NCBI GenBank assembly: GCA_012295275.1
Contig: CM022672.1
Coordinates: 31,310,001-31,374,000, forward strand
DNA from: Chrysomallon squamiferum
Lineage: Eukaryota; Animalia; Mollusca
Direction of reading: 5' to 3'
Length of the DNA: 64,000 nucleotides
The translations under genes were made by a program, and so were the position numbers. This document shows positions 13,141-57,909 of this stretch, in pieces. A model generated the notes under the pieces. It made no database searches. It was not told where the DNA came from and saw nothing but the letters and a program-made list of their open reading frames with translations. Numbering within the stretch: position 1 is the stretch's first letter; the number at the start of each line of letters is the position of its first letter.

Positions 13141-13849
13141 CATACATACCTACATGCATAAATACATACAAGCATAAATACATACATACATATATATATA
13201 TACCTATATAATCTCACTTAGAGACACACTCACACATAGGAGGGATTAGAGCATGTATTTATATTTATATATGCACTTAAGATCTGGCTCTAACTAACTT
13301 CTGACGACACATACAGAAATGGAATATTCAACTTGCCAGTGCCATGTTTCCAGGAAAACACAGATGCGCACAGAAATAACGAAAGTCAAAATACAGCGTG
13401 CTTTGTGGGAAGCGGTGATTACTCAGTTACTGGGCAGACTTTTCAAGGTTCTCTTCATGGCCGGACGGTGACGTTGTCAGCGGTATCTGCCGGGGTTTGT
13501 GAGGTCGTGATTGGACTTTGTCTTCCTGTGGTAGCGCCGTACTGTTATCAAAAGTCTAATGAAACGAACATAAAAAATACTCAATCCTAAATTATACACA
13601 GACAGACAGATACACAGACAGCAACACGTACAACTGCGAGGCTACATATAAAAGTACATTCGTGAGTCTGATTATCCAGATCATCACCTTCCATGTGAGT
13701 TTGTTATTAGTTTTTTTCTAAACTAACCTTTCATAAGTATGAAGTACAAAAGGAATATAACATATCGGTGTATATTATATACAGTTTATTCTGTTTCCAC
13801 AGTTTATTAACATAGACTATGATCATACAGACTAATTCCTATTAGTAAA

Positions 13850-13883
<34 letters not shown>

Positions 13884-14164
13884 TACTCCTGTTATTTAAT
13901 GATCACCATTCACAGTAAATATCGAGTAAAAAGACACGTCGTGTTTCACAGTCTTCATTTAGCAGACAGCAAAAGTGTTTACTGATAGAGTGGGAGATAA
14001 TTCCTTTACCACTTGCATGGAGAGAATGCTTGAGTTATTTCCCTTTAGCGTTTCGAATTTATTCTAATTAATTGTATATTTTGAATAAAAGCTTTTGATA
14101 CAATATATCGTTTAATATAAAGAAATAGAAAAAAAAAAAAAAAAAAAAAGAAAAAGAAAAAATC

Positions 14165-15450
14165 CATATTCACATTTTGGAGTTTCAAATCAAATAAGGA
14201 TATCAACCTTTTCTAATAAACAGGAATCGTTTTTATATATAAATTACTAAACGTTTAAAACGTGACACGGGATATAGACAAGGGGATCTGTTATTTCACT
14301 GCGTTTTCATTTTGTGTGTTGAGAGTCTTGGAATCGTGGTAAGAAATAAAAAACATATAGATAAGGGATAGAGATAAACGGCAATGAATTTAAAATTTCT
14401 GTAAGCATCTGTGGAAATATTAAAATATGTTACGGATTTATCTGGTATTAAAGTTAATCCCTATCAAACAAATATAATAAACTTAGACAAAGACAAATTT
14501 GATCATAAAAAAAAGTGTTCAAAAAAAAAAAAAAAAAAAAGTTAAAATGGACTACAGAATTCATAATACTTCGGGTACGGTTTACCACGGATCTGTGTAA
14601 AATACAAGAATTAAACTTTAATGCAAAGTTGAAAGAGGTTAAAAGGCTGCTTGAAATGTTCTTAGTATCTTCTAAGAAATATTACTGCAATCAAAAGTTT
14701 AGTTTCATCGAAAGTTGTTTGTTTTTTCTTCACTGCCAAATCCAACAAACTACTTCTTTAAACTAGTAGAAACCTATCATTTCAGTTTATGTGGCCCGCC
14801 TGAGGAAGAGCCATGTCTCATGTGGTCCGCTTGAGACAAAGATTGTCGATGCCTGATTTAGAGGCTCACTGATATTAGTTTTCTGTTCAGCGTACAGTGA
14901 AACAAAATTGCTGAAACGCACAAATTCCTTTTGTAAAATTGAATTACTTATATGGCTAAACTTTCTAGAGAAATGTGAAACGATAAGGGACAAGATAAAA
15001 ATACTATGTCAGTAGATTTAGTATAACATTCATATTAAAACTGATAATAACTCAGTTTATTATAAGACACTGGCAAAGAAAGGAATTTTAGTTCTAAAGT
15101 AACTTTTTGTTAAATGCCACCTGGCTTTCATATATTGCATTTTGTAGAAAAGAAAATATAACTTTAGACCACTATTTACAGTTCACAACGGCGTGATTCT
15201 AGCAATTAATAACTAGTATAAACTGTTTTTATAAAATATATAAGAAAGCTAAATGGCAGGATATTTTTGGTACAGAGAGTTCTATAGCAAATGTTGGACA
15301 AGTGAATATCTTCTTCCATTCAAAGGTAACTTCAGACACAGAACTTAGATATTATCAGTGTAAGATCTTGTTAGTTATCATGTCAACTAGTAAGCATTTC
15401 CTATTATATGGTAGAAGAAAGATTGAGATAAATATGAAAATGTTTAGTGA
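14165..15450 (+). mobile_element. Decayed L1/Tx1-clade non-LTR retrotransposon ORF2 fragment (left-arm copy)
   Basis: Broken translation gives RQGDLLFHCVFILCVESLGIVVRNKK..KGIEINGNEFKIS, TDLSGIKVN, IKTDNNSVYYKTLAKKGILVLK and KVTSDTELRYYQCKIL. These match RT motifs (RQGDPLSP..F....E.L; SGLKVN) and the downstream conserved region of L1/Tx1 ORF2. The QFADD segment is deleted in this copy. Confidence 0.8.
14790..14855. mobile_element. Terminal fragment of a hAT/Charlie-like non-autonomous element inside the LINE relic
   Basis: gtggcccgcc...gtggtccgc...gattgtcgatgcctg followed by atttagag, resembling Charlie-type subterminal GGCCCGC motifs, a ...CCTG end and an NTCTAGAN-like target. It replaces the IWNKKPDKI-coding segment present in the right arm. 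Confidence 0.5.
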
Positions 15451-16212
15451 AAATTTAATGCGCTTTATGTAAATAAGTCCAGACATTCTGTAAATATGTC
15501 AAATATTCAAGGATAGAAAATGAATAAAAAAAAACAAAGTTTTAAATTATTTTTCTGTTTTGCCATTTTGTATGTTTCTTGCAATAACGTGTACTTTTAT
15601 TTATATAAAGAAATATTTATATCTCTAAAATATGTTAATTCTTCTTCTTCTTCTTCTTCTTATTATTTATGTTGTTGTTTTTGTAGTTGTTTTTACTTAT
15701 GTTATGGAGTCTTCTGTATTTTAACACGTTAATTTACTCTTTTTTTTATTAGCGTATATTAGTTGTATGATACAGTTGTATTAGTTGTATCATTTGTAAA
15801 GAAAAATACCAACAGATAAATAAAAAAGGAAAAAGTGATATAAATAAATAAATAAATAAATAAATAAATATATCACACCAATAATCATTACAACTGTTAC
15901 TGTTTGAACAATGCTATTTTTTCACACTAAACCTAATAAAGGTGGTATTTGTCACACCTGTGTTTAGATCACTCTGACTCATAACACATACAAATAAATC
16001 AGTGTCCCATGTATTCTGATTCACCGTTACATTGCATTTTTCAGGATCGTAGTATAACGTTTCTTGTCGCCAACACAACTGACACGCTATTTTTATCTGA
16101 CCTACTTATTAGACACTTGTTAACATAACTTTTTCATCGATATACTGAGTGAGAAATATTAATATTTTACAGACAAAATAAATAAATAAATAAATAAATA
16201 AATAAATATGTA

Positions 16213-16255
<43 letters not shown>

Positions 16256-17062
16256 GCAAAAGCTTTGCATGTATCTACCGCCATACGTGGCGTGACTTAT
16301 ACGATATCTGATTTCAATCACGTGCTTATCAGCAGACGACTTAGTAAACAGCGACACACAGAAAATATTTCAGTGACCTTGTCAAGCAGAAAGGCGTCAG
16401 TTGTAGGAAAACCACTCACAAACAAGACGCATTATTCAGAAGTTGTCGGCCATTTTGAAATTTGAAGGTATTTTGTATTTTATTTTTATATTTAATATAT
16501 GCCGTACTATTGCTTTGCTTAAAACAAATTAGACATATTCAGCTTGTAATCTATTTTGTCAGGGCTGTGAATTTTGATAAAGGCGTTTTTATTATTATTA
16601 TTTTATTATTATTTTTTGTTATACCTAGCACCCTGGTTTATGAGAAACATCGATAAACTTATTTAATAATAATAATAATAATAATGCTATGGTCCTTATA
16701 ATAATAATTATTATTCTATTCGCAGTAGTAGTAATAGTAGTAGTAGTAGTGGAACTAGTAGCAGTAGTAGTAGTACTGGTCCTAGTAGTAGCAGCAGTAG
16801 TAGTTGTAATGATAGCACCTAAATATAGTTCAAATATATCGTTGACAGCTTATACTATATATTCATCAGTCTTTTACTTTATTTCATTTTATTTATTTAT
16901 TTATTTATAGATCCCTGATCTCAGTGATCAATAGTAGATTCATTAAACAGAAATAACTCATTTCTAAGAAATTACTGATCAGGAAGTTTTTCATGTAGGT
17001 AACTATTTAGAACCTATAAAGTAGTGTATATTGTTTTTAATTTTATTCAAATTTATTTAATT

Positions 17063-17106
<44 letters not shown>

Positions 17107-17506
17107 GTTATTATTATATTTCTTCTCTTATTTATTTCTTTGCATGTGTTCCTTTCTTTCTTTCTTCCTTTCTTCATTCGTTCCTTCCTTCTTAACTAAC
17201 GTTGGTTCGTCTATCACCCGTTCCAGCCAGTTCATAAAATGTTATTGTATTTGTTTTCATCTACAATGGAAAACATCGAAAAAGAAAAAAAAAAGAAAAA
17301 CAAGAAGAAAGAATAAACATTATTGCTGCTATGGATATACATATCACAAACAGCGTTATAGCGTGAGGCTTTTTAAACATGAAAAAATATGTGCTAGACC
17401 CGACTATAAAATGTTTCTTTCCATCTGGTGTATGGAAGTAGAAGATGTGATAATATTATCTCATATAATTTTTATTACTTTTTATTATTATTATTATTAT
17501 TATTAT

Positions 17507-17550
<44 letters not shown>

Positions 17551-18492
17551 CTTGTAGTAATAGTATTAGTATTAGTAGTAGTAGTTGTAGTAGTAGTATT
17601 TATGAGTTTGTTGGTTGTTTATGGAAAGTGCCACTAGAGGATGTGATCATATTATCTCATATATTTTTTTGTTATTATTATTATTATTATTTACGAGTGT
17701 GTTGGTTGTGTTTATCGTCTTTATTGAAATTGTTTATCTTCTCACAATGCTGACAAATGTAAATAATTTCTTATTTTCACGGGCTATTTCTACACTTATG
17801 GACAGATAGTGTATTTATAATGCATTTGTCAGATCGCTGTAAATAACACCCGAGTATACCTTTGTGTGCTCATATAGCAGTGACACGCTGTTTTTATATG
17901 ACCTACATAACAAGAAAACAGTCAGTGTTAGATTACATTTATATACTGGTCATGCAAGCCTCGTCAGAGAAATAAGACGTACACTTATATTTAGTAAAGT
18001 TAATGTAAAAGTTATTTGTTATTATTAGTATTGTTGTTGATGATGATGTTGTTGCTGTTATTATTATTATTATTATTATTATTAAATTAATAACTTACGT
18101 ATAAACATTGGCATCTAGTATTTAATTTATTAAATTAGAATTAATGTAATTTATTGTAAAGAAGATTTATTTAAGATGAGTGTATATATATCTGTATTTT
18201 GTTTATTTTAATCTGAAACTGAAACGAAACACTTGATGACATAAAAAGAAATTTGACGTCAGTCGCGTGTTTATCAGTGGAGGTTTCCTAACTAAAAGAA
18301 CACAAAGCAAAACGGACAGTAGTCGGCCATATTGAACGTGTATTTTTTTTTATATTTTATTATGTTTTAACCATTCCAGTGTTCTTAATTTATTACTAAA
18401 TATATAAGAGTTAGTTAACAAATAGATTACTTAAATATGAGGTTTTTTAAATTGAGATGAGAAAAGTTATGTATATCCTGACTTTAATATGC

Positions 18493-18537
<45 letters not shown>

Positions 18538-19287
18538 TACTGCTATCCTATTATATCTCTCTCCCTCTTTTTTTTTTATTCCCGACTTTTGCTATATATC
18601 GCTTACTTTATAATATTTTTTTTATTTTATTTATTCTTAGATAGGTGACATCTGTGATCTATTACTGAGTTGATAGAAAATAGTCACTTATAAGAAATTC
18701 TCGATCAGGAAGTTGAAATTACAAGGTATTTTATTTTGTTCTATATTTCAAAAGTATCACATCTTGTTCCTTGATTTTCCTTACTTATTATTCTTTTTTC
18801 TTTTATAGTGTTTCTTTTTATATTTGTTATTGTCGGTAAATTATTTTGTCTTTTCGAGGAGTAAATTGGTATAAATGACCATTTGTACATTGCGATTTGA
18901 AAATCGTTTCTCCCATAGTTAAATATTTCTGTGTATAAAAAAATAATAATAATAATAATTATTGTTGTTGTCGTCATCATAATTATCACTAGTATAATGT
19001 ACCTCTTTTTATCTTTTATCGATTTGGTATATATTTATCAGATCTTTTTCTTTCTTTCTTTCATTATCTTTTATTTATTTATTTATTTTTAGATTTCTGA
19101 TCGCATTATTGAACAGAAAATAGTCTCTTGTTAGAAATGATCTTAGGTTGATTTTTTTTTACATAAAAATGTTTGGTTTTTGAATAATTTCTATGTACAG
19201 GTCATAGCTAGATGTGAATATAGAAAACTGGTCACTGCAGTCTGAGGCTGTGTACTAGAAACATTTTAAAATTATATTTCGTATGAG

Positions 19288-19326
<39 letters not shown>

Positions 19327-19413
19327 TAAATAATTATTTTTTTTTTATTAGCCCTAAGAACTTTTACAGTCTGTGTCCGAATAATATCTTTTTCTTTTTC
19401 TTTCCCCATTCCA

Positions 19414-19460
<47 letters not shown>

Positions 19461-19475
19461 GTTTATAGTGAAAAC

Positions 19476-21123
19476 ATGGCCACCTCAGCAGAAGTTTCAA
19501 GTTGGCAGACAGGGAAAAAACTGACGGAGTGTATTGAACACGTTTTTCGTACGAGAACAGACAGCGACGTCAGATTTGTTGTTGGGGAAGAAGAAAAACT
19601 GTGGATGCACATCGCTTCATCCTTATGATACGAAGCGAAGTCTTCCACAGGATGCTGATGGGAGAACTGCGCGAACAAAACAGCATCATGTTGCCTGATG
19701 TGGAGGCAGATATTTTCACTGAGTTTTTAAAGTATGTTAACAAACACACACACACACACACACAAACACAGACACACAGAAACACAGACACAGACACACA
19801 AACACACACACACAGACACACACAGACACACACACACACAGACACAGACACACACACACACATGCAGAAACACAGACACAGACACACACACACACACACA
19901 AACACAGACACACAGCGACACAGGTACGAACATAGTGAGTAACGAAACATACAAACCGACACGAACGTTGATAACAATACAGTTTTTGTTAGTAATCTAA
20001 TTATTTTCTAATTAATTAATCTCCCATAATTATCTCTCGTTTTGAAGTCTTACTATACATTCTTTTACACAGATATCTTTATACGGATGACATCGTCCTA
20101 ACAGGCGACAACGTCACCGGTCTGCTGTATCTATCAAAGAAGTACATCGTCACGACACTGGAAGAACAGTGCGTGCGCTATTTGGAGTCGTCGTTGTCGT
20201 CACGGAATGCGTGCGTCGTGCTGGAACAAGCTCACCTGTTTGATGAACACGATCTAAGAAAAAAAAGTCTGGACTTCATTTTGGAAAATGGCGACGAAGT
20301 TCTGAAGTCGGATGAAGTCACCGATCTTTGTCACGAATGTCTGGTTGAGATCGTACGATCAGACGAACTGACAGCAGACGAGAAAAATGTTTTTGAAGCC
20401 GCTGTGAAGTGGGCTGACAGCGCATGTAAGAAGCAAGGAAGACAGACGAATGGACAGAACATGCGCGAAGCACTGGGAGAGGCCGTGAAGCACGTGCGTT
20501 ATCCATTACTCGATCAGACGTATTTTGTAGAACACGTGACACCCACTAACATACTCAGTGACAGAGAAGAAAACAAGATTTTTAAAAACTGGGTGAAGAG
20601 TGATGAAGATGTTTCACCTTTTAACTCAAACAAGAGAACTGCAATGATGAAAACACAGATTACAATAAACAGGTTTGGTGGAACATTTGGTAACTGGATC
20701 TGTTCTGGTGTATTTGATCAAGCCATTACTTTCTGTGTCAACAAAAACGCTTTACTTCGCGGATTTCAGTTGTACAGTTACCGTGAACCACGAAGCTACG
20801 ACGTCAGCGCCTTCGTCACTGACACAAGAAGAGACGAAATAGTTGACGGGTCTACACTGACACAGAGATATAAACGCGTCGTGTCTGACGTGTATGACGT
20901 CGTGTTCAGACGTCCACTGAAGATTACTAAAGACACTGAGTACAGCTTGTTTGTTAATGTTAAGGGAGACAACTCATTGTGTGGAGTTGAAGGTAAATCA
21001 GAAATTGTTGTAGACTCTTTTGTTTGTAGATTTTCTAAGTCACACAAATCTAAACACAGTCACATAAAACTTAGTACATTTGTGAGACTCGGACAAATAC
21101 CTGCTTTGTTATTTTTAGTGTAA
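19476..21123 (+). CDS. BTB-BACK-PHR domain protein (BTBD1/2/3/6-like Cullin-3 adaptor), copy 1; carries a 1-nt frameshift in exon 1 as assembled
   Basis: Exon 19476-19731 ([85 protein letters not shown]), intron 19732-20072 (gtatgt...acag, phase 2), exon 20073-21123 ([26 protein letters not shown]..., BACK, then PHR ending GQIPALLF). The A-run at 19594-19598 has 5 A versus 6 in copy 2, which shifts the frame. Confidence 0.9.
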
Positions 21124-22329
21124 AAAACAACATCGTTCAAACACTGTGAGTTTCAGTCATCACTGGCCTAATATTTTTATTTTTATTTATTTGTTCATTT
21201 ATTGATTTATTGATTTGTTTACGTTTTTCTGATGACGTCAGATAGCAGTGATGACGTCATAGACATTTGATTTGATTTGAAATTTTATAATGGATTGTTT
21301 TGTGTCAAACAAATACTTGAAAAATGTATAATGACTTCTCACTGATTTATTATTTATTTATTTATTTATTTATTTATGTATATCTAATGTTTTTTGTTTG
21401 TATATGAAACAATATTACTAACTCTTTCTTGCTTCATTTGTACTTTTTTATTTCGGTTTAGAATGTATATAAAATAAAATATAGATAAATTATATATGTA
21501 CTTACTGACTGTTGGACATGAAATACTAGAACTGTTGTTTGATTTATTTATCCATTTTCTTTTATTAAGATTTATATTAAATATGTTAGTAAATTAGATA
21601 ACGTTTCGAATTTACTGTTTGTTTGTTTATGTATAACATGTATATAAAGAAAATGCAAATAAATTTGTATCATAAATTTTTTTCTTCGTTTATTTTGGTA
21701 TTTGACTGTTTAAAATAAAAGAAAAAATGGACATAAAAATAAAGTTTTTTATAAAAGAGTTAATACATAAAATGTTGGAGAAATTTCAGAGCAGATCCTA
21801 TATCTTTGATGAATATATTAAAATGAAAAAAAAAACTTTGAATAATGGCTAACCGGAAAAAACTTTGAATAATCCTGATCTCTCTATTTCGATATCTGTG
21901 TAAATTCCAGAATAAAGGAACATTTTATATAGTAATTTGGATTGTCAACATAATTTTTCAAGTACGATCATTTTCTAAAAAACGACAACATTTATCATGT
22001 AATTAGACTACCGCGTGGACAAAATGAAATGATCGCACTTTGTAAAATCTTAATAAACAATGATGCCAAGCTTCTTGTAATCACTATACGTGGTATCCTA
22101 ACAACAGTCTTGTGGTCAGTAGTCACACAGTTTGGAAAGCAGTCAAGCAGTAAGTAAGCTGGGCACCCCTGTGTGGAGAATGATCAACTAGTCTTGGCTG
22201 TGTCTCACTGCTAACTGTTTTAATCACAACTCCGGTGGGAAGCTGATTAAGTGTGCACCAAACCTTGACCTGTGTTGTTATGAGTTGTTTGACAAATAAG
22301 CCTATGACTAATGGGAGGTAACCCTATAC

Positions 22330-26575: not shown

Positions 26576-29331
<2,756 letters not shown>

Positions 29332-30526: not shown

Positions 30527-31284
30527 AACACACATAAACATGTGGACAGAAATGTGTTTCATGATAATTATTATGTATTTGTTATTTGACTTAATTCAAT
30601 TTAATTTTTGTTTTATTTTTAATTTCATTTCCATTAATCAAGTTTAGTTTATTTATTTATTTTAGAGCAAATCTAATCATTATTTTAATTTTTTTTCTAT
30701 TTATTATTTTTTTTTTAGATATTTTTATTTTATTTGATATTATTATTATTGTTTTATTTATTGTTTTTCATCCTATCTTAGTTTGCAGCTGGTGTGATGT
30801 TGGAATGATAATGCATGTTTAAATTATCATGCAACTGAAAAAGTGAACGAAATATTTGATTATAACAAAATGATGATTATTAAAACAGTTATCAAAAAAA
30901 AAAAAAAAATTAAAAAATTAAAAATTCAATAAAAAATACAACGCAAGAATAGCAAAAAAACGGTGGAAGTTTAAAAATTAAATGAAACTAACATCTATAA
31001 GTCTGTCTGTATAAGAAATATACTATGAGATAACAATAAAATATTACTGAATAAAAAATGAAAATAACAACCAATATATGGAAATATGTTTATAAAAGTA
31101 TTTTAATAAAAAAAAAAAAAAAAAAAAAAAACAAACAAACAACAACAACAAACAAAACAAATTGTCATTGGTTCATTTTCTGATCTATGCCAGTGTGAAT
31201 AAAGCGAGAGATAGCTTAATTCATCTACATAATTGTGAGTAACATCAGATAATGTGACTAACAGTAAAGCGACTCACTGTGCTT

Positions 31285-34200
31285 GTCCAGGTCACACTCT
31301 CCGACCTTCGCCAGACAGTGCGGCTGTTACAGTAAAGAGAGGAAGGGTCCTGGTCACACTCTCTGACCTTCGCCAGACAGTGCGACTGTTACAGCAAAGA
31401 CAGGAAGTGTCCTGGTCACACTCTCCGACCTTCGCAAGACAGTGCGACTGTAACAGTAAAGAGAGGAAGTGTCCTGGTCACACTCTCCGACCTTCGCCAG
31501 ACAGTGCGACTGTTACAGCAAAGACAGGAAGTGTCCTGGTCACACTCTCCGACCTTCACCAGAAAGTGTGACTCTTACATTAAGAGATGAAATGTCCTAG
31601 TCACACTTTCCGACCTTCGCCAGACAGTGCGACTGTTACAGTAAAGAGAGGAAGTGTCTTGGTAACACTCTCAGTCCCTTCGCCAGACAGTGGGACTGTT
31701 AGAGCAAAGAGAGGAAGTGTCCTGGTCACAGTCTCCGACCTTCGCCAGACAGTGCGACTGTAACAGTAAAGAGAGGAAGTGTCCTGGTCAAACTCTCCGA
31801 CCTTCGCCAGACAGTGCGACTGTTACAGTAAAAAGAGGAAGTGTCCTGGTCCCACTCTCTGACCTTCGCCAGACATCGCGACTCTTACATTAAGAGAGGA
31901 AGTGTCCGGGTCACACTCTCTGACCTTCACCAGACTGCGGGACTCTTACATTAAGAGAGGAAGTGTCCAGATCGCATTCTCTGACCTTCACCAGACTGCG
32001 GGACTCTTACATTAAGACAGGAAGTGTCCGGGTCACACTCTCTGACCTTCAACAGACTACGGGACTCTTACATTAAGAGAGGAAGTGTCCGGGTCACACT
32101 CTCTGACTTTCACCAGACTGCGGGACTCTTACATTAAGACAGGAAGTGTCCGGGAAACACTCTCTGACCTTCGCCATACAGTGCGACTGTTACAGTAAAG
32201 AGAGGAAGTGTCCTGGTCGCACTGTCCGACGTTCGCCAGACAGTGTGACTCTTGCATTAAGAGAGGAAGTGTCCTGGTCACATTCTCCGACCTTCGCCAG
32301 ACAGTGCGACTGTTACAGAAAAGAGAGGAAGTGTCCGGGTCAAACTCTCCGACCTTCACCAGACAGTGCAACTGTTACATTAAGAGAGGAAGTGACCGAG
32401 ACACAACCTCTGACCTTCACCAGACAGCTGGACTCTTACATTAAGAGGGGAAGTGTCCGAATCACACTCTCTGACCTTCACCAGACAGCGGGACTGTTAC
32501 AGTAAAGAGAGGACGTGTCCTTTTCAGGCTCTCCGACCGTCGCCAGACAGTGCGACTGTAACAGTAAAGAGAGGAATTGTCCTGTTCACGGTCTCTGACC
32601 TTCGCCAGACAGTGCGACTGTTACAGCAAAGTGAGGAAGTGTCCTGGTCACACTTTCCGACCTTCGCTAGACAGTGCGACTGTAACAGTAAAGAGAGGAA
32701 GTGTCCTGGTCACACTCTCCGACCTTCGCCAGACAGTGCGACTGTAACAGTAAAGAGAGGAAGTGTCCTGGTCACACTCTCCGACCTTCACCAGACAGTG
32801 TGACTCTTACATTAAGAGATGAAGAGTCCTAGTCACACTCTTCGACCTTCGCCAGACAGTGCGACTGTTACAGTAAATAGAGGAAGTGTCCTGGTCGCAC
32901 ACTTCGACCTTCGGCAGACAGTGCGACTGTTACAGTAAAGAGAGGAAGTGTCTTGGTCACACTCGCAGTCCCTTCGCGAGACAGTGGGACTGTTAGAGCA
33001 AAGAGAGGAAGTGTCCTGGTCACAGTCTCCGACCTTCGCCAGACAGTGCGACTGTAACAGTAAAGAGAGGAAGTGTCCTGGTCAAACTCTCCGACCTTCG
33101 CCAGACAGTGCGACTGTTACAGTAAAGAGAGGAAGTGTCCTGGTCCCACTCTCTGACCTTCGCCAGACATCGCGACTCTTACATTAAGAGAGGAAGTGTC
33201 CGGGTCACACTCTCTGACCTTCACCAGACTGCGGGACTCTTACATTAAGAGAGGAAGTGTCCAGATCGCATTCTCTGACCTTCACCAGACTGCGGGACTC
33301 TTACATTAAGACAGGAAGTGTCCGGGTCACACTCTCTGACCTTCACCAGACTACGGGACTCTTACATTAAGAGAGGAAGTGTCCGGGTCACACTCTGACC
33401 TTCACCAGATTGCGGGACTCTTACATTAAGACAGGAAGTGTCCGGGACACACTCTCTGACCTTCGCCATACAGTGCGACTGTTACAGTAAAGAGAGGAAG
33501 TGTCCTGGTCCCACTCTCTGACCTTCGCCAGACATCGCGACTCTTACATTAAGAGAGGAAGTGTCCGGGTCACACTCTCTGACCTTCACCAGACTGCGGG
33601 ACTCTTACATTAAGAGAGGAAGTGTCCAGATCGCATTCTCTGACCTTCACCAGAAGGCGGGACTCTTACATTAAGAGAGGAAGTGTCCGGGTCACACTCT
33701 CTGACTTTCACCAGACTGCGGGACTCTTACATTAAGACAGGAAGTGTCCGGGACACACTCTCTGACCTTCGCCATACAGTGCGACTGTTACAGTGAAGAG
33801 AGGAAGTGTCCTGGTCGCACTCTCCGACCTTCGCCAGACAGTGTGACTCTTGCATTAAGAGAGGAAGTGTCCTGGTCACATTCTCCGACCTTCGCCAGAC
33901 AGTGCGACTGTTACAGTAAAGAGAGGAAGTGTCCGGGTCAAACTCTCCGACCTTCACCAGACAGTGCAACTGTTACATTAAGAGAGGAAGTGACCGAGAC
34001 ACAACCTCTGACCTTCACCAGACAGCTGGACTCTTACATTAAGAGGGGAAGTGTCCGAATCACACTCTCTGACCTTCACCAGACAGCGGGACTGTTACAG
34101 TAAAGAGAGGACGTGTCCTTTTCAGGCTCTCCGACCGTCGCCAGACAGTGCGACTGTAACAGTAAAGAGAGGAATTGTCCTGTTCACGGTCTCTGACCTT

Positions 34201-37200
34201 CGCCAGACAGTGCGACTGTTACAGCAAAGTGAAGAAGTGTCCTGGTCACACTTTCCGACCTTCGCCAGAGAGTGCGACTGTTACAGCAAAGTGAGGAAGT
34301 GTCCTGGTCACACTTTCCGACCTTCGCTAGACAGTGCGACTGTAACAGTAAAGAGAGGAAGTGTCCTGGTCACACTCTCCGACCTTCGCCAGACAGTGCG
34401 ACTGTAACAGTAAAGAGAGAAAGTGTCCTGGTCACACTCTCCGACCTTCACCAGACAGTGTGACTCTTACATTAAGAGATGAAGAGTCCTAGTCACACTC
34501 TTCGACCTTCGCCAGACAGTGCGACTGTTACAGTAAATAGAGGAAGTGTCCTGGTCGCACACTTCGATCTTCGGCAGACAGTGCGACTGTTACAGTAAAG
34601 AGAGGAAGTGTCTTGGTCACACTCGCAGTCCCTTCGCGAGACAGTGGGACTGTTAGAGCAAAGAGAGGAAGTGTCCTGGTCACAGTCTCCGACCTTCACC
34701 AGACTGCGGGACTCTTACATTAAGAGAGGAAGTGTCCAGATCGCATTCTCTGACCTTCACCAGACTGCGGGACTCTTACATTAAGACAGGAAGTGTCCGG
34801 GTCACACTCTCTGACCTTCACCAGACTACGGGACTCTTACATTAAGAGAGGAAGTGTCCGGGTCACACTCTCTGACCTTCACCAGATTGCGGGACTCTTA
34901 CATTAAGACAGGAAGTGTCCGGGACACACTCTCTGACCTTCGCCAGACAGTACGACTGTTACAGTAAAGAGAGGAAGTGTCCTGGTCCCACTCTCTGACC
35001 TTCGCCAGACAGTGCGACTCTTACATTAAGAGAGGAAGTGTCCGGGTCACACTCTCTGACCTTCACCAGACAGTGGGACTCTTACATTAAGAGAGGAAGT
35101 GTCCAGATCGCATTCTCTGACCTTCACCAGACTGCGGGACTCTTACATTAAGAGAGGAAGTGTCCGGGTCACACTCTCTGACTTTCACCAGACTGCGGGA
35201 CTCTTACATTAAGACAGGAAGTGTCCGGGACACACTCTCTGACCTTCGCCAGACAGTGCGACTGTTACAGTAAAGAGAGGAAGTGTCCTGGTCGCACTCT
35301 CCGACCTTCGCCAGACAGTGTGACTCTTGCATTAAGAGAGGAAGTGTCCTGGTCACATTCTCCGACCTTCGCCAGACAGTGCGACTGTTACAGTAAAGAG
35401 AGGAAGTGTCCGGGTCAAACTCTCCGACCTTCACCAGACAGTGCAACTGTTACATTAAGAGAGGAAGTGTCCGAGACACAACCTCTGACCTTCACCAGAC
35501 AGCTGGACTCTTACATTAAGAGGGAAGTGTCCGAATCACACTCTCTGACCTTCACCAGACACCGGGACTGTTACAGTAAAGAGAGGAAGTGTCCTGTTCA
35601 GGCTCTCCGACCTTCGCCAGACAGTGCGACTGTTACAGTAAAGAGAGGAAGTGTCCTGTTCACGGTCTCTGACCTTCGCCAGACAGTGCGACTGTTACAG
35701 CAAAGAGAGGAAGTGTCCTGGTCACACTCTCCGACCTTCGCCAGACAGTGCGACTGTAACAGTAAAGAGAGGAAGTGTCCTGGTCACACTCTCCGACCTT
35801 CACCAGACAGTGTGACTCTTACATTAAGAGAGGAAGTGTCCTGGTCACACTCTCCGACCTTCGCCAGACAGTGCGACTGTTACAGTAAAGAGAGGAAGTG
35901 TCCTGGTCACACTCTCCGACCTTCGCCAGACAGTGCGACTGTTACAGTAAAGAGAGGAAGTGTCTTGGTCACACTCTCCGACCTTCGCCAGACAGTGGGA
36001 CTGTTACAGTAAAGAGAGGAAGTGTCCTGGTCACACTCTCCGACCTTCGCCAGACAGTGCGACTGTTACAGTAAAGAGAGGAAGTGTCCTGGTCACACTC
36101 TCCGACCTTCGCCAGACAGTGCGACTGTTACAGTAAAGAGAGGAAGTGTCCTGGTCACACTCTCTGACCTTCACCAGACAGTGGGACTCTTACATTAAGA
36201 GAGGAAGTGTCCGGGTCACACTCTCTGACCTTCACCAGACTGCGGGACTCTTACATTAAGAGAGGAAGTGTCCGGGTCACACTCTCTGACCTTCACCAGA
36301 CAGTGGGACTCTTACATTAAGACAGGAAGTGTCCGGGTCACACTCTCTGACCTTCACCAGACAGTGGGACTCTTACATTAAAGAGAGGAAGTGTCTTGGT
36401 CACACTCTCCGACCTTCACCAGACAGTGCGGGACTCTTACATTAAGAGAGGAAGTGTCCTGGTCACACTCTCTGACCTTCGCCAGACAGTGCGACTGTTA
36501 CAGTAAAAGAGGAAGTGTCCTGGTCCCACTCTCTGACCTTCGCCAGACAGTGGGACTCTTACATTAAGAGAGGAAGTGTCCTGGTCACACTCTCTGACCT
36601 TCACCAGACTGTGGGACTCTTACATTAAGAGAGGAAGTGTCCGGGTCACACTCTCTGACCTTCACCAGACAGCGGGACTCTTACATTAAGAGAGGAAGTG
36701 TCCGGGTCACACTCTCTGACCTTCACCAGACTGCGGGACTCTTACATTAAGACAGGAAGTGTCCGGGTCACACTCTCTGACCTTCGCCAGACAGTGCGAC
36801 TGTTACAGTAAAGAGAGGAAGTGTCCTGGTCGCACTCTCCGACCTTCGCCAGACAGTGTGACTCTTACATTAAGAGAGGAAGTGTCCTGGTCACACTCTC
36901 CGACCTTCGCCAGACAGTGCGACTGTTACATAAAGAGAGGAAGTGTCCGGGTCACACTCTCCGACCTTCACCAGACAGTGGGACTGTTACATTAAGAGAG
37001 GAAGTGTCCGAGTCACACTCTCTGACCTTCACCAGACAGTGCTGGACTCTTACATTAAGAGAGGAAGTGTCCTGGTCACACTCTCTGACCTTCACCAGAC
37101 AGTGGGACTGTTACAGTAAAGAGAGGAAGTGTCCTGGTCACACTCTCCGACCTTCGCCAGACAGTGCGACTGTTACAGTAAAGAGAGGAAGTGTCCTGGT

Positions 37201-44693: not shown

Positions 44694-44893
44694 NNNNNNN
44701 NNNNNNNNNNNNNNNNNNNNNNNNNNNNNNNNNNNNNNNNNNNNNNNNNNNNNNNNNNNNNNNNNNNNNNNNNNNNNNNNNNNNNNNNNNNNNNNNNNNN
44801 NNNNNNNNNNNNNNNNNNNNNNNNNNNNNNNNNNNNNNNNNNNNNNNNNNNNNNNNNNNNNNNNNNNNNNNNNNNNNNNNNNNNNNNNNNNNN
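44694..44893. other. Assembly gap (200 N)
   Basis: Exactly 200 N, typical of a fixed-size scaffolding gap. The true distance and the relative orientation of the flanks are unknown. Confidence 0.99.
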
Positions 44894-45009
44894 ACGTTTT
44901 ATTTTATACACATTTTAAACCGAAATAGAAAAAGTACAAATGAAGCAAGAAATAGTAAAAAATATTAAGTTTTATATACAAACTAAAAACATTAGATATA
45001 CTGAAACAA

Positions 45010-45040
<31 letters not shown>

Positions 45041-45287
45041 ATATATAAATGATAAAGCAATGAGATGTTAATATACATTTCACACGTATCTGTTTGACAC
45101 AAAACAATCCATTAGAAAATTTGAAATCAAATCAAGTGTCTATGACGTCATCACTGCTGTATGACGTCATCAGAAAAAATGTAAACAAAGAAATAAACAA
45201 ATAAATAAATCAATAAACAAATAAATAAACATAAAATTTTTAGGCCAGTGATGACTAAAAGTGACAGTGTTTAAACGATGTTGTTTT

Positions 45288-46792
45288 TTACACTAAAAAT
45301 AACAAAGCAGGTATTTGTCCTATGTCCACACATGTAAAAAGTTTTCTGTGACTGTGTTTAGATTTGTGTGAGTAAGAAAATCTACAAACAAAAGAGTCTA
45401 CAACAATTTCTGATTTACCTTCAACTCCACCCAATGAGCTTCCTCCCTTAACATTAACAAACAAGCTGTACTCAGTGTCTTTAGTAATCTTCACTGGACG
45501 TCTGAACACGACGTCATACACGTCAGACACGACGTGTTCATATCTCTCTGACAGCGTAGACCCGTCCAGTATTTCGTCTGTTCTTGTGTCAGTGACGAAG
45601 GCGCCGACGTCGTAGTTTCGTGGTTGACGGTGACCGTACAACTGAAATCCGCGAAGTAAAGCGTTTTTGTTGACAGAGAAAGTAATGGATTGATCAAAAT
45701 TACCAGAACATGGCCAGTCATCAGTTCCTGTTCTACCAAACCTGTTCATTGTAATCTGTGATTTACGAATCACTGCAGTTCTCATGTTTGAGTTAAAAGG
45801 TGAAACATCTTCATCACTCTTCACCAAGTTTTTAAAAATCATGTTTTCTTCTCTGTCACTGAGTATGTTAGTGGGTGTCACGTGCTCTACAAAATACGTC
45901 TGATCGAGTAATGGATAACGCACGTGCTTCACGGCCTCTCCCAGTGCTTCCCGCATGTTCTGTGCATTCGTCTGTCTTCCTTGCTTCTTACACGCGCTGT
46001 CAGCCCACTTCACAGCGGCTTCGAAAACATTTTTCTCGTCTGCTGTCAGTTCGTCTGATCGTACGATCTCAACCAGACATTCGTGACAAAGATCGGTGAC
46101 TTCATCCGACTTCAGAACTTCGTCGCCATTTTCCAAAATGAAGTTCAGACTTTTTTTTTTTAGATCATGTTCATCAAACAAGTGAGCTTGTTCCAGCACG
46201 ACGCACGCATTCCGTGACGACAACGACGACTCCAAATAGCGCACGCACTGATCTTCCAGTGTCGTGACGATGTACTTCCTCGATAGATACAGCAGACCGG
46301 TGACGTTGTGGCCTGTTAGGACGACGTCATCCGTATAAAGATATCTGTGTAAAAGAATGTATAGTAAGACTTCAAAACGAGAGATAATTATGGGAGATTA
46401 ATTAATTAGAAAATAATTAGATTACTAACAAAAACTGTATTGTTATCAACGTTCGTGTCGGTATGTATGTTTCGTTACTCACTATGTTCGTACCTGTGTC
46501 GCTGTGAGTGTCTGTGTGTTTCTGTGTGCGTATGCGTGTGTGTGTTTCTTTGTTAACATACTTTAAAAACTCTGTGAAAATATCAAGCACATCAGGCAGA
46601 AAATCCCATCAGCATCCTGTGGAAGACTGTACTTCGTATCATAAGGATGAACCGATGTGCATCCACAGTTTTTTCTTCTTCCCCAACAACAAATCTGACG
46701 TCGCTGTCTGTTCTCGTACGAAAAACGTGTTCAATACATTCCATCAGTTTTTTCCCTGTCTGCCAACTTGAAACTTCTGCTGCGGTGGCCAT
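45288..46792 (-). pseudogene. BTB-BACK-PHR domain protein, copy 2; BTB exon has a frameshifting deletion and premature stop, BACK-PHR exon intact
   Basis: Exon 46792-46562 reads [66 protein letters not shown]. The 28 nt of copy 1 (gaactgcgc...catgt) are replaced by 5 nt (ttttc), with a further 3-nt loss. Intron 46561-46345. Exon 46344-45288 is fully open and ends [10 protein letters not shown]. Confidence 0.85.
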
Positions 46793-46833
46793 GTTTTCAC
46801 TGTAAACAACAAATAATAAAATAATAATAATGA

Positions 46834-46880
<47 letters not shown>

Positions 46881-47029
46881 AATAATAATAATAATAATAT
46901 GGAATGGAGAGAAAGAAAAAGAAATTGTTCGGACACAGAACTGTAACAATTCTTAGGGCTAATAACAATAATAAAAACATTTAATTAATAATATTAATAA
47001 TAATAATGATGATGATGATGATGATGATG

Positions 47030-47067
<38 letters not shown>

Positions 47068-47071
47068 CATA

Positions 47072-47116
<45 letters not shown>

Positions 47117-49163
47117 CTCATACTAAATATAATTTTAACATGTTTCTCTGTACAAGTCAGAGTTCTGTTGCAGCGCCTCGCACTGCAGTGACCAGGTTTC
47201 TATATTTATATCTAGCTATGACCTGTTCACGGAAATCTTTCAAACAAACATTTTTGTAAAGAAATAATTAACCTAAGATAATTTCTAATAAGGGACTACT
47301 TTCTGTTTAAAGCCTGTACTGTTCAATACTGCGATCAGAGATCTAAAAATAAACAAAATAAAAAAAAATAATGAAAGAAAGAAAGAAAGAAAAAATCAGA
47401 TAAATATATACCGAATCGATAAAAGATAGAAAGAAGTACATTATGCTTACATTAGTGATTATGATGATGACGACAACAGCAATAATTGTTATTATAATTA
47501 TTATTATTATACACAGACATGTCTGGTCACAGTCAGGTAAGGACTATTTCACTGCGGCACAAACGATTTTCAAATCGCAATGTACATATAGTGATTTATA
47601 CACCATTTTACTTCTCGAAAACACAACATAATTAGCCGTCAATAACAAATCTAAGAAGAAACACTATATAAGAAAAGAGAATAATAAGAAAAATAAAGGA
47701 ACAAGATGTGATGTTTTTTTAAATAGAAAACAATACAAAATACCTTTAATTTCAACTTCCTGATCGACAATTTCTTATAAACGACTATTTTCTTTCTATC
47801 AACTCAACTGTAGATCACAGATATAACCGATCTAAGAATAAATGCAATAAAATAAAACAAAATAAAATAAAATATATAGCAAAAGACGTCAATATTCTTT
47901 TTTTAATAATAATAAGGGCAACAGTAGTAGAAGTAGTAGTAGTAATATCATACTAAAGACTTTAGTAAAGTCATGTTATACGTAATCTTTCATTTAAGTT
48001 TAAAGAAAACTCACACTTAAATAATCTATTTGTTGAAGAACTAACTCTGATATATTTAGTAATAAATTAAGAACACCGGAATCGTTCAAACATAATAAAA
48101 TATAAAATATCATACACTTTCAATATGGCTGACTAGTTTCACTTCTGCTTTGTAAACTTTTAGTTATCAAACCCTCCACTGATAAACACGCGACTGACGT
48201 CAAATATGTTAGACGTCACAAAGTGTCACTTTGTTAGGTTTCAGTCTCAGATTAAAATAAACAAATAGTTTTACGAGATATCTGTATACTCATCTTACAT
48301 ACATCTTCTTTACAACAGATAACTTTAATTCTAATTCAGTGGATTAAGTACTACTAGACTGCATTGTTTATACGTCAGTTATAAAGGTAATTAATACTAA
48401 TAATAATAATAATAATAACAATAACAATAACAACAACAATAACAATAGCAGCAGCAGCAACAACATCAACAGCAACAATAATAAGAAATATGTACATGTT
48501 TTATTTCTCTGACGAAACTTGCATAACCAGTATGTGAATGTAATCTAACACTGATTGTTTGCTTGTTATGTAGGTCATGTTAAAATATCGTGTTACTGGT
48601 ACACGAGCACACAAAGGTATACTCGGGTGTTATTTACAGCGATCTGACAAATTCATTGTTAATACACTATCTCTCCATAAGTGTAGAAATAACCCGTGAA
48701 AATACGAAATTATTTACATTTGTCAGCATTGTGAGAAGATAAATAATTTCAATAAAGACGATAAAAACAACCAACAAACAAACTCGTAAATAGAAAAAAA
48801 TAAAATTATATGAGATAATATTATCACATCCTCTAGTTACACCTTCCATACACCAGATCGTAAGAAACATTTTACAGTCGGGTCTAGCACATATTTTTCC
48901 ATGTTTAAAAAGCCTCACGCTATAACGGTGTTTTGTATTATGTATATCCATAGCAGCAATAATGTTTATTCTTTTTTTCTTTTCTTCTTTGTTTTCTTTC
49001 TTTTCTTTTTTTTCTTTTTTTTTCCATTGTAGATGAAAACATTTTATATATTGGTTAGCATCGGTGATAGACCAAAATGAATGTTAGATAAACAAGGAAG
49101 GAACGAATGAAGAAAGGAAGAAAGAAAGACTGAACGAAACACATGCAAAGAAATAAATAAGAA

Positions 49164-49211
<48 letters not shown>

Positions 49212-49374
49212 AATAAATAAATAAATAAAATAAGAACAATATAAAATACTTTGTAGTTTTAAAGTAGATACCTACCTGAAAAACTTCCTGATCGATAATT
49301 TCTTAGAAACGAGTAATTTTTGTTTAACAACGCTGCTATTGATCACTGAGATCAGTGATGTATAGATAAATCTA

Positions 49375-49405
<31 letters not shown>

Positions 49406-49551
49406 AATGAAATAAAGTAATATAAAGTAATCAGATCGATAAATATATAGCATAAGTAATAAATGAATCATTGAACTATGTTTAGGTGATACTATTATTA
49501 CTACTACTACTATTATTAATGGAATAATAATAATTATTATAATGACGATTG

Positions 49552-49596
<45 letters not shown>

Positions 49597-50799
49597 ATAT
49601 TTTATCGATATTTCTTATAAATCTGTATTCTAGGTACGAAAAAAAAGCCTTTAACAAAATTCACACAAAAACTGTCTTCACAAAATAGATAACAATTTCT
49701 ATATGTCTGATTTGTTTTAAGGAAAGCAATAGTACAACATATATTAAATGACAATAAAATACAAAATACCTTCAGATTTCAAAATGGCCGACTTTCTGCT
49801 TGACAAGGTCACTGAAATATTTTCTGTGTGTCGCCGTTTACTAAGTCGTCTGCTGATAATCACGTGATTGAAATCAGATATCGTACAAGTCACGTCACGG
49901 TAGATACATACACTTTGTGCAAACCTGTCATACAAAAAAAAAAAAAAAAATTATGATTTGTTATTACTTATTTTTTCTGTAAACTATTTAGCTTTATTTC
50001 TCAGTCAATATATTGATGAAAAAGTTATCGTTAACAAGTGTCTGTTACGGAGGTCAGATACAAACAGCGTGTCAGTTGTATTGGCGACAAGAAACGTTAT
50101 ACTATGATCGTGAAATATGCAATGTAATGGTGAATCAGAATACATGGGACACTCCTTTATTTGTATGTGTTATGAGTCAGAGCGATCTAAACACAGGTGT
50201 GACAAATACTACCTTTATTATATTTAGTATAACAAAAATAGCTTTGTTCAAATACTAACACTTATACTCATCATTGTGGTAATATTGTTTGTTTATTTAT
50301 TTATTTATTTATTTATTTGTTTATTTATTTACTTGTTTCACTTTTTAATATATATATTGGTATTTTTATTATTTATTTATTTTTCTTTCTTCTTTTCTTC
50401 TCTTTTATTTGACTACAAATGATACAGTATAATATATAATACAAATAAAACAAGCTAATAAAAAAGTAAAAGTAAATTAATGTGTTAAAATACAGAAGTC
50501 TCCACAACATTAGTAAAAACCACAACAACAACAACAAGAACAACAACACCAACAACAACAACACCAACAATAATAATAATAAGAAGAAGAAGAAGAAAAA
50601 GAAGAAGAAGAAGAAGAAGAAGAAGAAGAAGAAGAAAAAGAAGTAGAAGAAAAGAAGAAGAAGAATTAATATGTTTTAGAGGTATTTGTTCATATAAATA
50701 AATTAACATGTTTTAGACAAAAAATATTTGATCACATAAATAAAAGTATATATTATTGTAAGAAACATAAGAAAACAAAATAGAAAAATAGATCATAAC

Positions 50800-52225
50800 G
50801 AGAACATGCGTATTACATTTTCACTAAACATATTACAAAATTCACATTTAACTGAATCTTTTTATACGATATAATACCAAATGTTTGTTATTAAGACAAA
50901 TCATAAATTCTTGTACTGAAAGTATCTAAGCTCGGTGTTTATAGTTAGCTTCCCACCATTTGTCACAGAACTCTATACCAAATTTATGCTTTTCTCTTTT
51001 TTTCTTTTTTTTTTTTTTTTATTAATCGCCAGCAACAAGACACTATAAATATAAAATTATGGTCTTAACTTATGTTTTCTTGTCTACAAAATGGAATGCA
51101 TGAAATCCAGTTGTCGTTAGCAAAAAGAGATTTTAAAAATAAAATTCCTTTCTTTGCCACTGTCTTATAAAAAGCAGATTTATTATCAATTTTAATGCGA
51201 ACATTATATTATATCTATTGACGTAGTATTTTTATCTTGTCCCTTCTGCTTTCACATATCTCTAGAAAGTTTGACCATGTGTGTAAAACATTTTTCCAAA
51301 AGGAATTTGTGCGTTTCAACAATTTTGCTTCACTGTAGGCTGACCCTAAAACTAATGTCAGTGAAATTTTTGATTATAAACAGTTACTCAAAAGAGAGGC
51401 AATGTCTTGGCTAAAATTTATGTCTTTAATCCACTATATCTTTAACTCATTAAAAAGTAACTTAACATTTATTGCTCTTAAACAACCATTTTGATAATAG
51501 TCAAATAATGGGGCAGCGGATGTTTGTTTTTTTCTAGCTATTTTATCAGGTTTTTTATTCCAAATAAACTGAAAGAAATAGGTTTCTAATATTTTAAAGA
51601 AATAGTTTGTTGGATTTGGCAGTGAAGAAAAAAATAAACAATTTTCGATCAAACTAAACTTTTTATTGCAGTAATTTTGACAATTGTTCAAGCAGCCTTT
51701 TAACCTCATTCAACTTTGCATTTAAGTTTAATTCTTGTATTTGACACAGATCCGCGGAAAACCGTACCCGAAGTATTGTGAATTCTGTAGTCCATTTTAA
51801 TTTTTGTTTTGATCAGATTTTGTTTATGATTAATTTGGTCTTTCCCTAAGTTTATTATATTTGTTTGATGTACATTAACTTTAAGACCAGATATATCAGT
51901 AAAATATTTTGTTTCCACAGATACTTACAGAGTTTTATCAGACCAACCTAATAGCAATGTTGTGTCGTCGGCGAACTGTGAAATTTCAAAATTCATTGTC
52001 GTTTATCTCAATACCGTATATATATATATATATATGTTACTTATTTCTTACCAAGATTCCAAGACTCTCAACACACAAAATGAAAACGCAGTGAAATAAC
52101 AGATCCCCTTGTCTATATCCTGTTTCACGTTTTAAGCGTTTAGTAATTTATATATAAACACGATTCCTGTTTATTAGAAAAGGTTGATATCCATGTTTGA
52201 TTTGAAACTCCAAAGTACGAATATG
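50800..52225 (-). mobile_element. Decayed L1/Tx1-clade LINE ORF2 fragment (right-arm copy, retains the catalytic QFADD motif)
   Basis: Minus-strand translation gives EISQFADDTTLLL (QFADD at 51978-51964), YFTDISGLKVNVHQT, LPNPTNYFFKILETYFFQFIWNKKPDKIARKK...YYQNGCLRAIN and IKIDNKSAFYKTVAKKGILFLK. Multiple stops and frameshifts. Confidence 0.85.
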
Positions 52226-53868
52226 TTGGGGTTTTTTTAATAATTAATCGATGTTGTATCAAAAGCTTTTATTCAAAATATACAATTAATTAATTAGAAT
52301 AAATTCGAAACACTAAGGGGAAATAACTCAAGCTTTCTCTCTATGCAAGTGGTAAAGGAATTATCTCCCACTGTATCAGTAAACACTTTTGTTGTCTGCT
52401 AAATGAAGACTGTGAAACACGACGTGTCTTTTTACTCGATATTTACTGTGAATGGTGATCATTAAATAACAGGAGTTTTCTTCTTCTTATTACTATTATT
52501 ATTACTATTATTATTGTTGCTGTTGCTGTGGTTGTTGTTGTTGTTGTTGTTGTTGTTGTTATGATTATGATTATTACTCAGTATCTAATAGGAATTATTC
52601 TGTATGGTCTATGTTAATAAACTGTTGAAACAGAATAAAGTGTATATTGAAAAGGTTGCCCAGTAACTGAGGGTAATCACCGCTTCCCACAAAGCACGCC
52701 GTATTTTGACTTTCGTTATTTCTGTGTGTATCTGTGTTTTCCTGGAAACCTGGCAATGACAAGTGTGTATTTAAGGTTGAATATTTTATTTCTATATGAG
52801 TCGTCTGCATAATAATTAAGCAGAGTTAGAATCAGAAGGTCTTAAGTGCATATATTAATAAGATATTTTTACGTGCCTTTTCTATGTGTACATATCCGAG
52901 TGTCTGAGTATCTCTGTCTGTCTGTCTGTCTGTCTGTCTGAATAATTTTCTCTCTATTTCTGCCTCTCTCTCTCTGACCCCCTCTCTCTTTCTGTTTCTC
53001 TTTCTCTGTCTTTATTGTTTCTTTTTTTTTTATTTTTTTTTTTATTTAGAAGTATCAAGTTATTTATGTATAACTGTATATAAAAAAATTAGGACATGGT
53101 AACAGATATATTTGTTAATAAATATTCCATTGTTATAAATAGGTTTAGTATTACGGTTACATTAGGGTTAAGATCAGGGCTGGTATAAAATTTATCTTAA
53201 TATCAGTTATCTTTCAAGATTTTTTCATTTTTTATTTTTATTTTAAAATTAGGTAACCATCTAAATGGATATTTCTTTGTTATATGTTTATGAAGTTTCT
53301 GCTCTGTTTATATTTATATATTAAATTGCTTACTGTGTTGGATTATAAATTGTCAGTTTCTGTTAGCTGTCACGCTGGCTGCTTTTAACCTGTGTTTGTT
53401 TATTCATGCTGGTTTGTTGTTTAATGAGTGTTTTATTTATTTTTATTTCTGATACTAAACTTTGCCCTATGACAGTAATACAATTATCCTCATTCTTCCA
53501 TGGCTGAATCCGACTTTAATTAGTAAAAAAAAAAAAAAAAAAAAAAAAATAATAATAATAATAATAAAAATAATTCAAACTTAACTCTTGTTGAAATATT
53601 GTTGATCAAGCTGATACATTATACTTAATAAATGACTGAATTTGAATTGACTAATCACTGTCATAGTGCCTCTAAAAGCTTCCATGTGTTGATAATGACC
53701 ATATTAGGCACTGGTACCGCTATTATCACTCAAAAATGAAAAAGAAAACGAAAATAAAAGAAAGCAAAAGGAATATAATATTGGTAAATTCGGATCGTGT
53801 TTAAGATATTGAAAATATGTTATTGTAAATAAAACAGACAGTATATTAATTAATTTCACATGAAACAA

Positions 53869-56261: not shown

Positions 56262-56449
56262 TTTTTATTTTTATTTTTATTTTATTTTTTTAATTGTTTT
56301 TTTTTATATATATAAATACGTTAAATTCGAAGTAAATCTACTTACAGGCGTTTTGGTGAGTTCAGACTTTGACGTCTGCTCGTGTGTTTCACCCAGGTGT
56401 TGTCTCGCGACACTCCTCGTAGACATTTTTTTGATAACAGAAGATAATA

Positions 56450-57520: not shown

Positions 57521-57909
57521 GGACCCACTGTAAAAAGTAGAGGTTAACAGAAACAAAGTAAATAGTGAGATCTCGAAACCGCTACCAAGATTAAACATCA
57601 TCATCACTGTGTTCCTTCCTTTCGCCATATATACACGCATACACAAACACGCGCGCACACACGTACATACACAAATAGACATAGACATGCTCACACACAG
57701 AAATATATACAAACTCACAGACACACAGAGAGTCTCAACCACATACAGACATTTTAAAAATAATTTAACTGTATTGTAAAATGTAATATATACAAAAATA
57801 ATATTTATAAACTTTTATTTTCGTCTTTGCTGAGTGAATTGAGAAGACAATTACAGACTTCAGTGTGTTATTACTTTATTTCCCACTGCAGTGTGACATT
57901 CTGCACGTG

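Follow-up and report, generated by a model that had tools for sequence, protein, structure and literature searches.

Two BTB-BACK-PHR genes, frameshifted as assembled, in an inverted duplication

The window, meaning the whole 64,000-nucleotide stretch of Chrysomallon squamiferum DNA analyzed here, carries an inverted duplication of ∼8 kb, and each of its two blocks contains one two-exon BTB-BACK-PHR gene, designated copy 1 and copy 2. A 200-N scaffold gap adjoins the inverted block, and the placement of copy 2, both in direction and in distance, relies on scaffolding. An array of 62-bp units in tandem, 13.4 kb long (31284–44690; ∼218 copies, 90% match, 51% GC) sits between both gene copies and reaches into the scaffold gap. 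Further tandem repeats are found at 26757–28271 (39-bp unit, ∼39 copies) and 56449–57520 (63-bp unit, ∼17 copies), the latter beside a repetitive open frame of 203 codons on the minus strand (57077–57688) that is probably incidental. Two mutually similar blocks flanked by AG..GT (18640–18730 and 19090–19150) lie 5′ of the start codon, are retained in both copies, and on inspection by eye are possible untranslated exons.

Features of the duplicated block, the two gene copies, and the variable PHR loops (positions in the window; residues numbered within exon 2)
Feature	Positions	Strand	Remarks
Duplicated block with copy 1	13262..21479	+	∼8 kb
Inverted partner block with copy 2	44897..52860	-	stops at 200-N scaffold gap
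Scaffold gap, 200 N	44694..44893		four bases from end of inverted block
Copy 1 exon 1, N-terminal part of BTB	19476..19731	+	256 nt, one base short of frame
L-R-E at φ-x-E Cul3-docking motif position	19667..19675	+	located by eye from comparison with G. aegis paralogs
Copy 1 intron	19732..20072	+	GT..AG, phase 2, CA repeat
Copy 1 exon 2	20073..21123	+	open; BTB tail, BACK, linker, PHR, stop
Copy 1 BACK	∼20215..20538	+
Copy 1 PHR	∼20668..21114	+
Variable PHR loop 1	20674..20721	+	residues 201–216; includes 3-nt indel
Variable PHR loop	20776..20796	+	residues 235–241
Variable PHR loop	20872..20889	+	residues 267–272
Variable PHR loop	20968..20982	+	residues 299–303
Variable PHR C-terminal loop	21037..21102	+	residues 322–343; several codons with at least 3 residues across family
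Copy 2 exon 1	46562..46792	-	231 nt, 26 nt short of frame
Copy 2 intron	46345..46561	-
Copy 2 exon 2	45288..46344	-	open; BTB tail, BACK, PHR (∼45746–45297), stop

Exon 2 is open in copy 1 and copy 2 (349 and 351 residues, respectively), and the Pfam BTB tail, BACK, and PHR domains score in both, with a Pfam match in exon 1 of copy 1 as well. By Pfam and fold matching, the domain order BTB, BACK, PHR is that of BTBD1/2/3/6-like proteins. The AlphaFold model is confident (pLDDT 94.9), and its fold matches the PHR structures 3NO8 and 3GBW (human BTBD2 PHR and mouse MYCBP2 PHR) and also KLHL11, so that the likeness to BTBD1/2/3/6 and to the PHR domains of MYCBP2/RPM-1 lies in both domain order and PHR fold.

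As assembled, the reading frame is shifted within exon 1 of each copy, and neither has a full-length open reading frame. Copy 1 has an A5 run at 19594–19598, which is A6 at the same place in copy 2, and a premature TGA at 19626–19628; an in-frame ATG at 19625 could yield an N-terminally truncated copy 1 protein. Exon 1 of copy 2 has a T4 run at 46603–46600 and a TGA at 46594–46592. Since each lesion touches a homopolymer run, assembly error is possible for both frameshifts. Neither is among the best 40 of 328 or the best 40 of 169 variant rows obtained from public contigs of other samples. One loose end in the RNA run X8, at 46344, looks by eye like an intact exon 1 end joined to exon 2, and some family member is therefore spliced as annotated.

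The φ-x-E Cul3-docking motif is located after BTB helix 3 in the portion of PMC3616122 available. With the position placed by eye, the deletion in exon 1 of copy 2 takes the motif out, and copy 2 would thus lack it even were its frame intact. By the same placement φ-x-E is retained in 20 of the 22 paralogs of the snail Gigantopelta aegis in which the region was matched; in two paralogs, P0001 and P0002, Asn replaces the Glu, and some members may therefore have lost or altered Cul3 docking. Judging from homology, intact members would bind Cul3.

The state of exon 1 brings up the reading that the locus reflects pseudogene decay, consensus errors, or haplotypes joined across the gap, with no selection signal. 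Frameshifts at or beside a homopolymer run in both copies, a duplicated block that ends at the 200-N gap, and ∼eight PHR sites at which the letter of copy 1 is rare in public contigs would all fit such an origin, but upstream flanks that diverge by 12% and by many indels do not, and with the further evidence given below we consider it very improbable.

Amino acid differences between the copies and the neutral yardsticks

In the final part of the gene (20740–21120, 127 sense codons) 21 codons differ in the encoded amino acid and one is purely silent, confirming the count of the sequence-only reading, and the three multi-base codon changes it named (aag/tac, agt/ttt, aga/gac) are present. The Nei-Gojobori method gives Sd 3.7, Nd 25.3, and a dN/dS of 2.06 for this region, with a one-sided Fisher P = 0.17. 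The 21:1 ratio is weaker than it looks because silent changes hide within multi-hit codons, and, the neutral expectation being ∼3.4:1, it was rejected as proof of selection by itself. Of the "strong" diversifying signature proposed earlier, the concentration of changes in PHR stands, but "strong" overstates a two-sequence statistic with this P value. Over the whole PHR (20650–21120), 31 non-silent codons and 1 silent codon are found among 157, and dN/dS is 2.23 (P = 0.047, or 0.014 when transitions are weighted 2x).

The ratio between the copies is 0.28 for the BTB tail and BACK, which bears out the proposed division into a BTB-BACK half that is conserved and a PHR half that changes fast and, to judge from these codon differences, shows that purifying selection has acted during most of the history of the pair; the low BACK value means that any loss of function is recent, and it is at odds with decay or error. 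The figures of 6 silent and 5 non-silent differences given for the BACK region hold for the 153 codons at 20170–20628, but not for the region directly before 20740, where 4 are silent and 16 non-silent. Similarly, both in-frame indels described for the N-terminal loop of PHR exist, but only one (3-nt) lies in that loop, the other being located ∼12 codons upstream at the end of the linker.

The differences are clustered rather than scattered, falling in one set of loops. Strand order in the AlphaFold model was used to place five loops at one end of the β-sandwich and five at the other, and the variable five are predicted to share one face. With loop limits set after the differences of the pair were known, residues differ at 21/56 positions in the five variable loops, 2/23 in the loops of the opposite end, 8/78 in the strands, and 7/160 in the BTB tail and BACK; the variable loops thus exceed the remaining PHR (10/101) with P = 6e-5. 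Multi-base codon changes and indels are concentrated in the loops, in which the number of purely silent codons is 0. Neither errors nor decay would favor five loops or non-silent positions.

Whether the loops evolve faster than neutral sequence depends on the yardstick. Loop dN (0.26) exceeds both the gene-wide dS of 0.055 (P = 2e-6) and the upstream non-coding divergence of 0.12 (309/2618 sites; P = 7e-4), whereas the comparison with the dS of the loops themselves is marginal (P = 0.047). In these pairwise comparisons, made without site models, loop dN is therefore clearly above two of three yardsticks. Outside the five loops the PHR has a pN of 0.043 (10/235), which does not differ from dS (12/231; P = 0.67), and selection over the whole PHR was accordingly rejected; taken over the entire domain, pN is 0.107, no higher than the divergence of the upstream DNA (P = 0.77).

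The yardsticks themselves are uneven. Divergence between the copies is 0.118 in the upstream DNA, but only 12/231 at silent sites and 1/144 scored sites in the 3′ part of the intron (19912–20072 against 46505–46345), which is a probable conversion tract. Silent and intron divergence lie far below the upstream value (P = 5e-4), indicating gene conversion over the gene body, and this homogenization distorts the dS yardstick.

The main rival to selection follows from this observation. In that account the ancestral PHR ligand was lost, the loops drift, and conversion homogenizes the intron, BACK, and strands, while short tracts pasted into the loops from distant paralogs inflate the apparent dN/dS. 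The homogenized gene body, the gathering of multi-base changes and indels in the loops, and the marginal outcome of the local loop test are all as it would predict. However, loop dN is twice the divergence of the unconverted upstream DNA, and pasted neutral tracts should carry silent changes, whereas the loops of the pair have no purely silent codon. Together with two observations on relatives described below, this leads us to regard relaxed loops with conversion as unlikely, and selection acting on the five loops, rather than loss of constraint, as probable.

The same loops in relatives of the pair

Public contigs from nine runs (one organism, three studies) were examined; these come from samples other than the source individual and contain 35–54% of the sampled words of copy 1. 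Four runs were compared with each copy at ≥80% identity, runs X10–X17 (shares ≤0.11) being excluded, and 416–2018 contigs matched on 1586 bp and 109–909 on 591 bp. The distinct contigs found at this identity number in the hundreds for each run, which indicates that the family is large; summed contig depth was not taken as copy number, and depth dips over the loops were not counted as evidence. Variant rows are the best-supported 40 of 328 and 40 of 169. Among these best rows, 34/38 PHR rows are non-silent relative to the copy 1 codon, leaving 4/38 silent against an expected 23–29% (P = 0.04 to 0.006), which again speaks against neutral tracts pasted into relaxed loops. In the other row set, again among the best rows, non-silent variants make up 16/17 PHR rows versus 8/15 BTB-tail/BACK rows. 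Many rows overlap the differences of the pair, which makes the counts independent of it only in part; variable codons beyond those differences, among the best rows, fall within the five loops in 7/7 cases, and loose ends of contigs supply further loop sequences.

Among named proteins, the closest are BTBD2/3/6-like proteins of G. aegis with 52–53% identity, and ∼30 G. aegis paralogs were found. Both copies group with the G. aegis expansion (99/96) in a tree of 26 rows, clear of the canonical BTBD1/2 and BTBD3/6 clades, and their clade, which is separate from BTBD3/6, comprises G. aegis and Haliotis proteins. BTBD6 orthology was considered and rejected, since the family lies outside the canonical clades and its loops are hypervariable; "BTBD6-like" is no more than a label. 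Scanning metagenome contigs gave 158 pattern matches, none confirmed as a relative, and a PHR-only protein search gave no match at E ≤ 1e-8 among 56 candidates.

Site rates were calculated from protein sequences only, for 24 G. aegis paralogs covering PHR out of 44 proteins. Truncated sequences (P0014, P0022, P0187, P0190, P0195, and P0196) were excluded, as were P0007, P0018, and P0005 (a divergent subclade), the unnamed P0004, and non-Gigantopelta matches. In the P0005, P0007, and P0018 subclade the loops of the C-terminal domain are shortened, and that domain lacks a precomputed Pfam PHR match.

Mean site rate in G. aegis is 1.71 in the five loops, compared with 0.72 in the loops of the opposite end (P = 5e-5), 0.75 in the strands, and 0.61 in BACK. 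Sites that differ within the C. squamiferum pair also evolve rapidly in G. aegis (1.79 vs 0.91, P = 4e-6). Loop enrichment is seen in 7/9 nearest G. aegis pairs and is absent in P0188/P0189 and P0191/P0025; it is also absent in the P0005/P0018 pair. The PHR variability proposed from the two copies thus recurs among paralogs of a related snail, and this family-level result is independent of the pair. That the five loops also have the highest rate in G. aegis counts against relaxed loops with conversion, and the recurrence of the pattern in another species and in variants carried by neither copy counts against decay or error. The contigs, the G. aegis paralogs, and the BACK dN/dS together describe a large lineage-specific family with a conserved cullin-binding half.

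In canonical proteins the pattern is inverted. The five loops are the slowest part of the PHR in BTBD1/2-type (n = 7) and BTBD3/6-type (n = 5) proteins, with rates of 0.68 and 0.58, respectively, and the opposite-end loops are the fastest (1.29 and 1.63), whereas in the snail family the five loops are the most variable part. Both canonical sets were chosen by eye from a 98-row alignment, four of the sequences carrying or clustering with such names, and since the motifs used for the choice lie partly in the loops, this control is biased towards conserved loops. In work by Sampathkumar from 2010, the conserved PHR surface is reportedly formed by these "apical" loops. The slow canonical loops agree with the flat, conserved, and likely protein-binding surface of the PHR1 structure, as summarized in the available part of a review (PMC4806438). 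Most unnamed relatives from other animals in the 98-row alignment (P0019–P0163) have divergent PHR loops, which suggests, at the level of the alignment, that the BTB-BACK-PHR family may have expanded repeatedly.

A possible role in recognizing changing proteins

Our favored explanation, held with some confidence, is that the two genes are members, frameshifted as assembled, of a large and putatively Cul3-docking family whose five PHR loops have diversified to recognize changing, probably foreign, proteins. Intact members would dimerize and dock on Cullin-3 through the conserved BTB-BACK half, as Btbd6 does in the available text of a preprint (10.1101/575910), and the PHR, by analogy, would extend outwards to serve as a binding head. 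The loop face that is held constant in canonical proteins would be redrawn copy by copy, and the diversified loops would recognize changing proteins for ubiquitination. New copies would appear in tandem, trade sequence with one another, and be lost, in a process of birth-and-death turnover with gene conversion. The concentration of change in the five loops, both in the pair and among the G. aegis paralogs, points to a likely arms race with target proteins. That the putative targets are foreign (viral, transposon, or microbial) is a guess to which we give slightly less than even weight. PHR as a substrate site is an analogy, because in vertebrates it is the BTB of Btbd6, and not its PHR, that recruits Plzf, the known substrate (10.1101/575910, available text).

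Families of this kind are known on other folds. The nematode and plant F-box and MATH-BTB families are reportedly described as birth-death families in a 2006 study by Thomas. They resemble the snail family in being cullin adaptors with unstable copy number, a conserved cullin-binding half, and a fast-changing other half. The snail family works like them but is not a member, differing in its mollusc host and in its putative recognition fold, a PHR β-sandwich. For the nematode and plant families, the accessible portion of PMC1866355 presents pathogen defense as a hypothesis based on indirect evidence.

The expansion itself is already published. PMC7736800, in the text available, reports 56 copies of "BTBD6" in C. 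squamiferum and 35 in G. aegis and interprets them as a nervous-system adaptation. In the available part of PMC7895826 the orthogroup is listed among immunity-related families, with a size of 72 in G. aegis and 16–37 in five of six bivalves listed; its C. squamiferum copy number of 5 is discrepant with the 56 of PMC7736800. This peltospirid expansion shares with the present genes its multi-copy and tandem nature, contains their nearest named relatives, and falls in one clade with both copies. In the available texts, both papers report copy numbers under a neural or immune label and, unlike the present analysis, do not consider domains, selection, or broken copies. In the open-access literature, to which our search extended (subscription journals lie outside its coverage), we found no publication describing PHR loops that are hypervariable or under selection. 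The loop-confined, family-level signal represents an evolutionary pattern that is already known, here on a fold that is new to it.

Alternatively, the diversification could be real but directed towards proteins of the snail itself, the paralogs dividing endogenous substrates among them, as the neural interpretation would have it. The role of canonical Btbd6 in neural differentiation (PMC7736800 and 10.1101/575910, in the parts available) lends this some plausibility, as does the reading that PMC7736800 gives to both expansions. Yet the terms "PHR," "positive selection," and "pseudogene" do not occur in the available text of PMC7736800, whose neural reading, to that extent, offers no test, and the family lies outside both canonical clades. 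Very young copies that turn over, with broken members among them, would better fit a moving target, as would the finding that even the best public run has only 54% of the sampled words of copy 1. Division of endogenous substrates is therefore improbable in our estimation. Symbiont control was set aside as the leading reading, being weakly opposed by expansion of the orthogroup in several bivalves too. A list in PMC7895826, presumed from file order to be that of genes enriched in the oesophageal gland, has two BTB-named rows in the part available, their family membership unassigned.

Returning to recognition of changing proteins, the foreign-target idea for expanded cullin adaptors has so far stood on indirect evidence, and the PHR of this family, which is small, folds well, and has five defined loops, makes pull-down tests practical. 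The loops indicate candidate ligand-contacting residues of the PHR, which are poorly known even for human BTBD1/2/3/6. The PHR would join the folds that serve as variable heads on cullin adaptors, namely F-box partners, MATH, and Kelch, and the inverted conservation on its predicted binding face argues for a recognition repertoire under conflict and not for nervous-system adaptation. A more far-reaching possibility, which we regard as speculative, is that in molluscs the conserved partner-binding face of the PHR has become an antibody-like variable surface, and that the paralogs form an intracellular receptor repertoire passing viral, transposon, or bacterial proteins to Cul3 to be destroyed, with dozens of paralogs that would be reshuffled by conversion and differ between individuals. 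If true, such a repertoire would constitute an undescribed arm of cell-autonomous immunity, and the first built on PHR.
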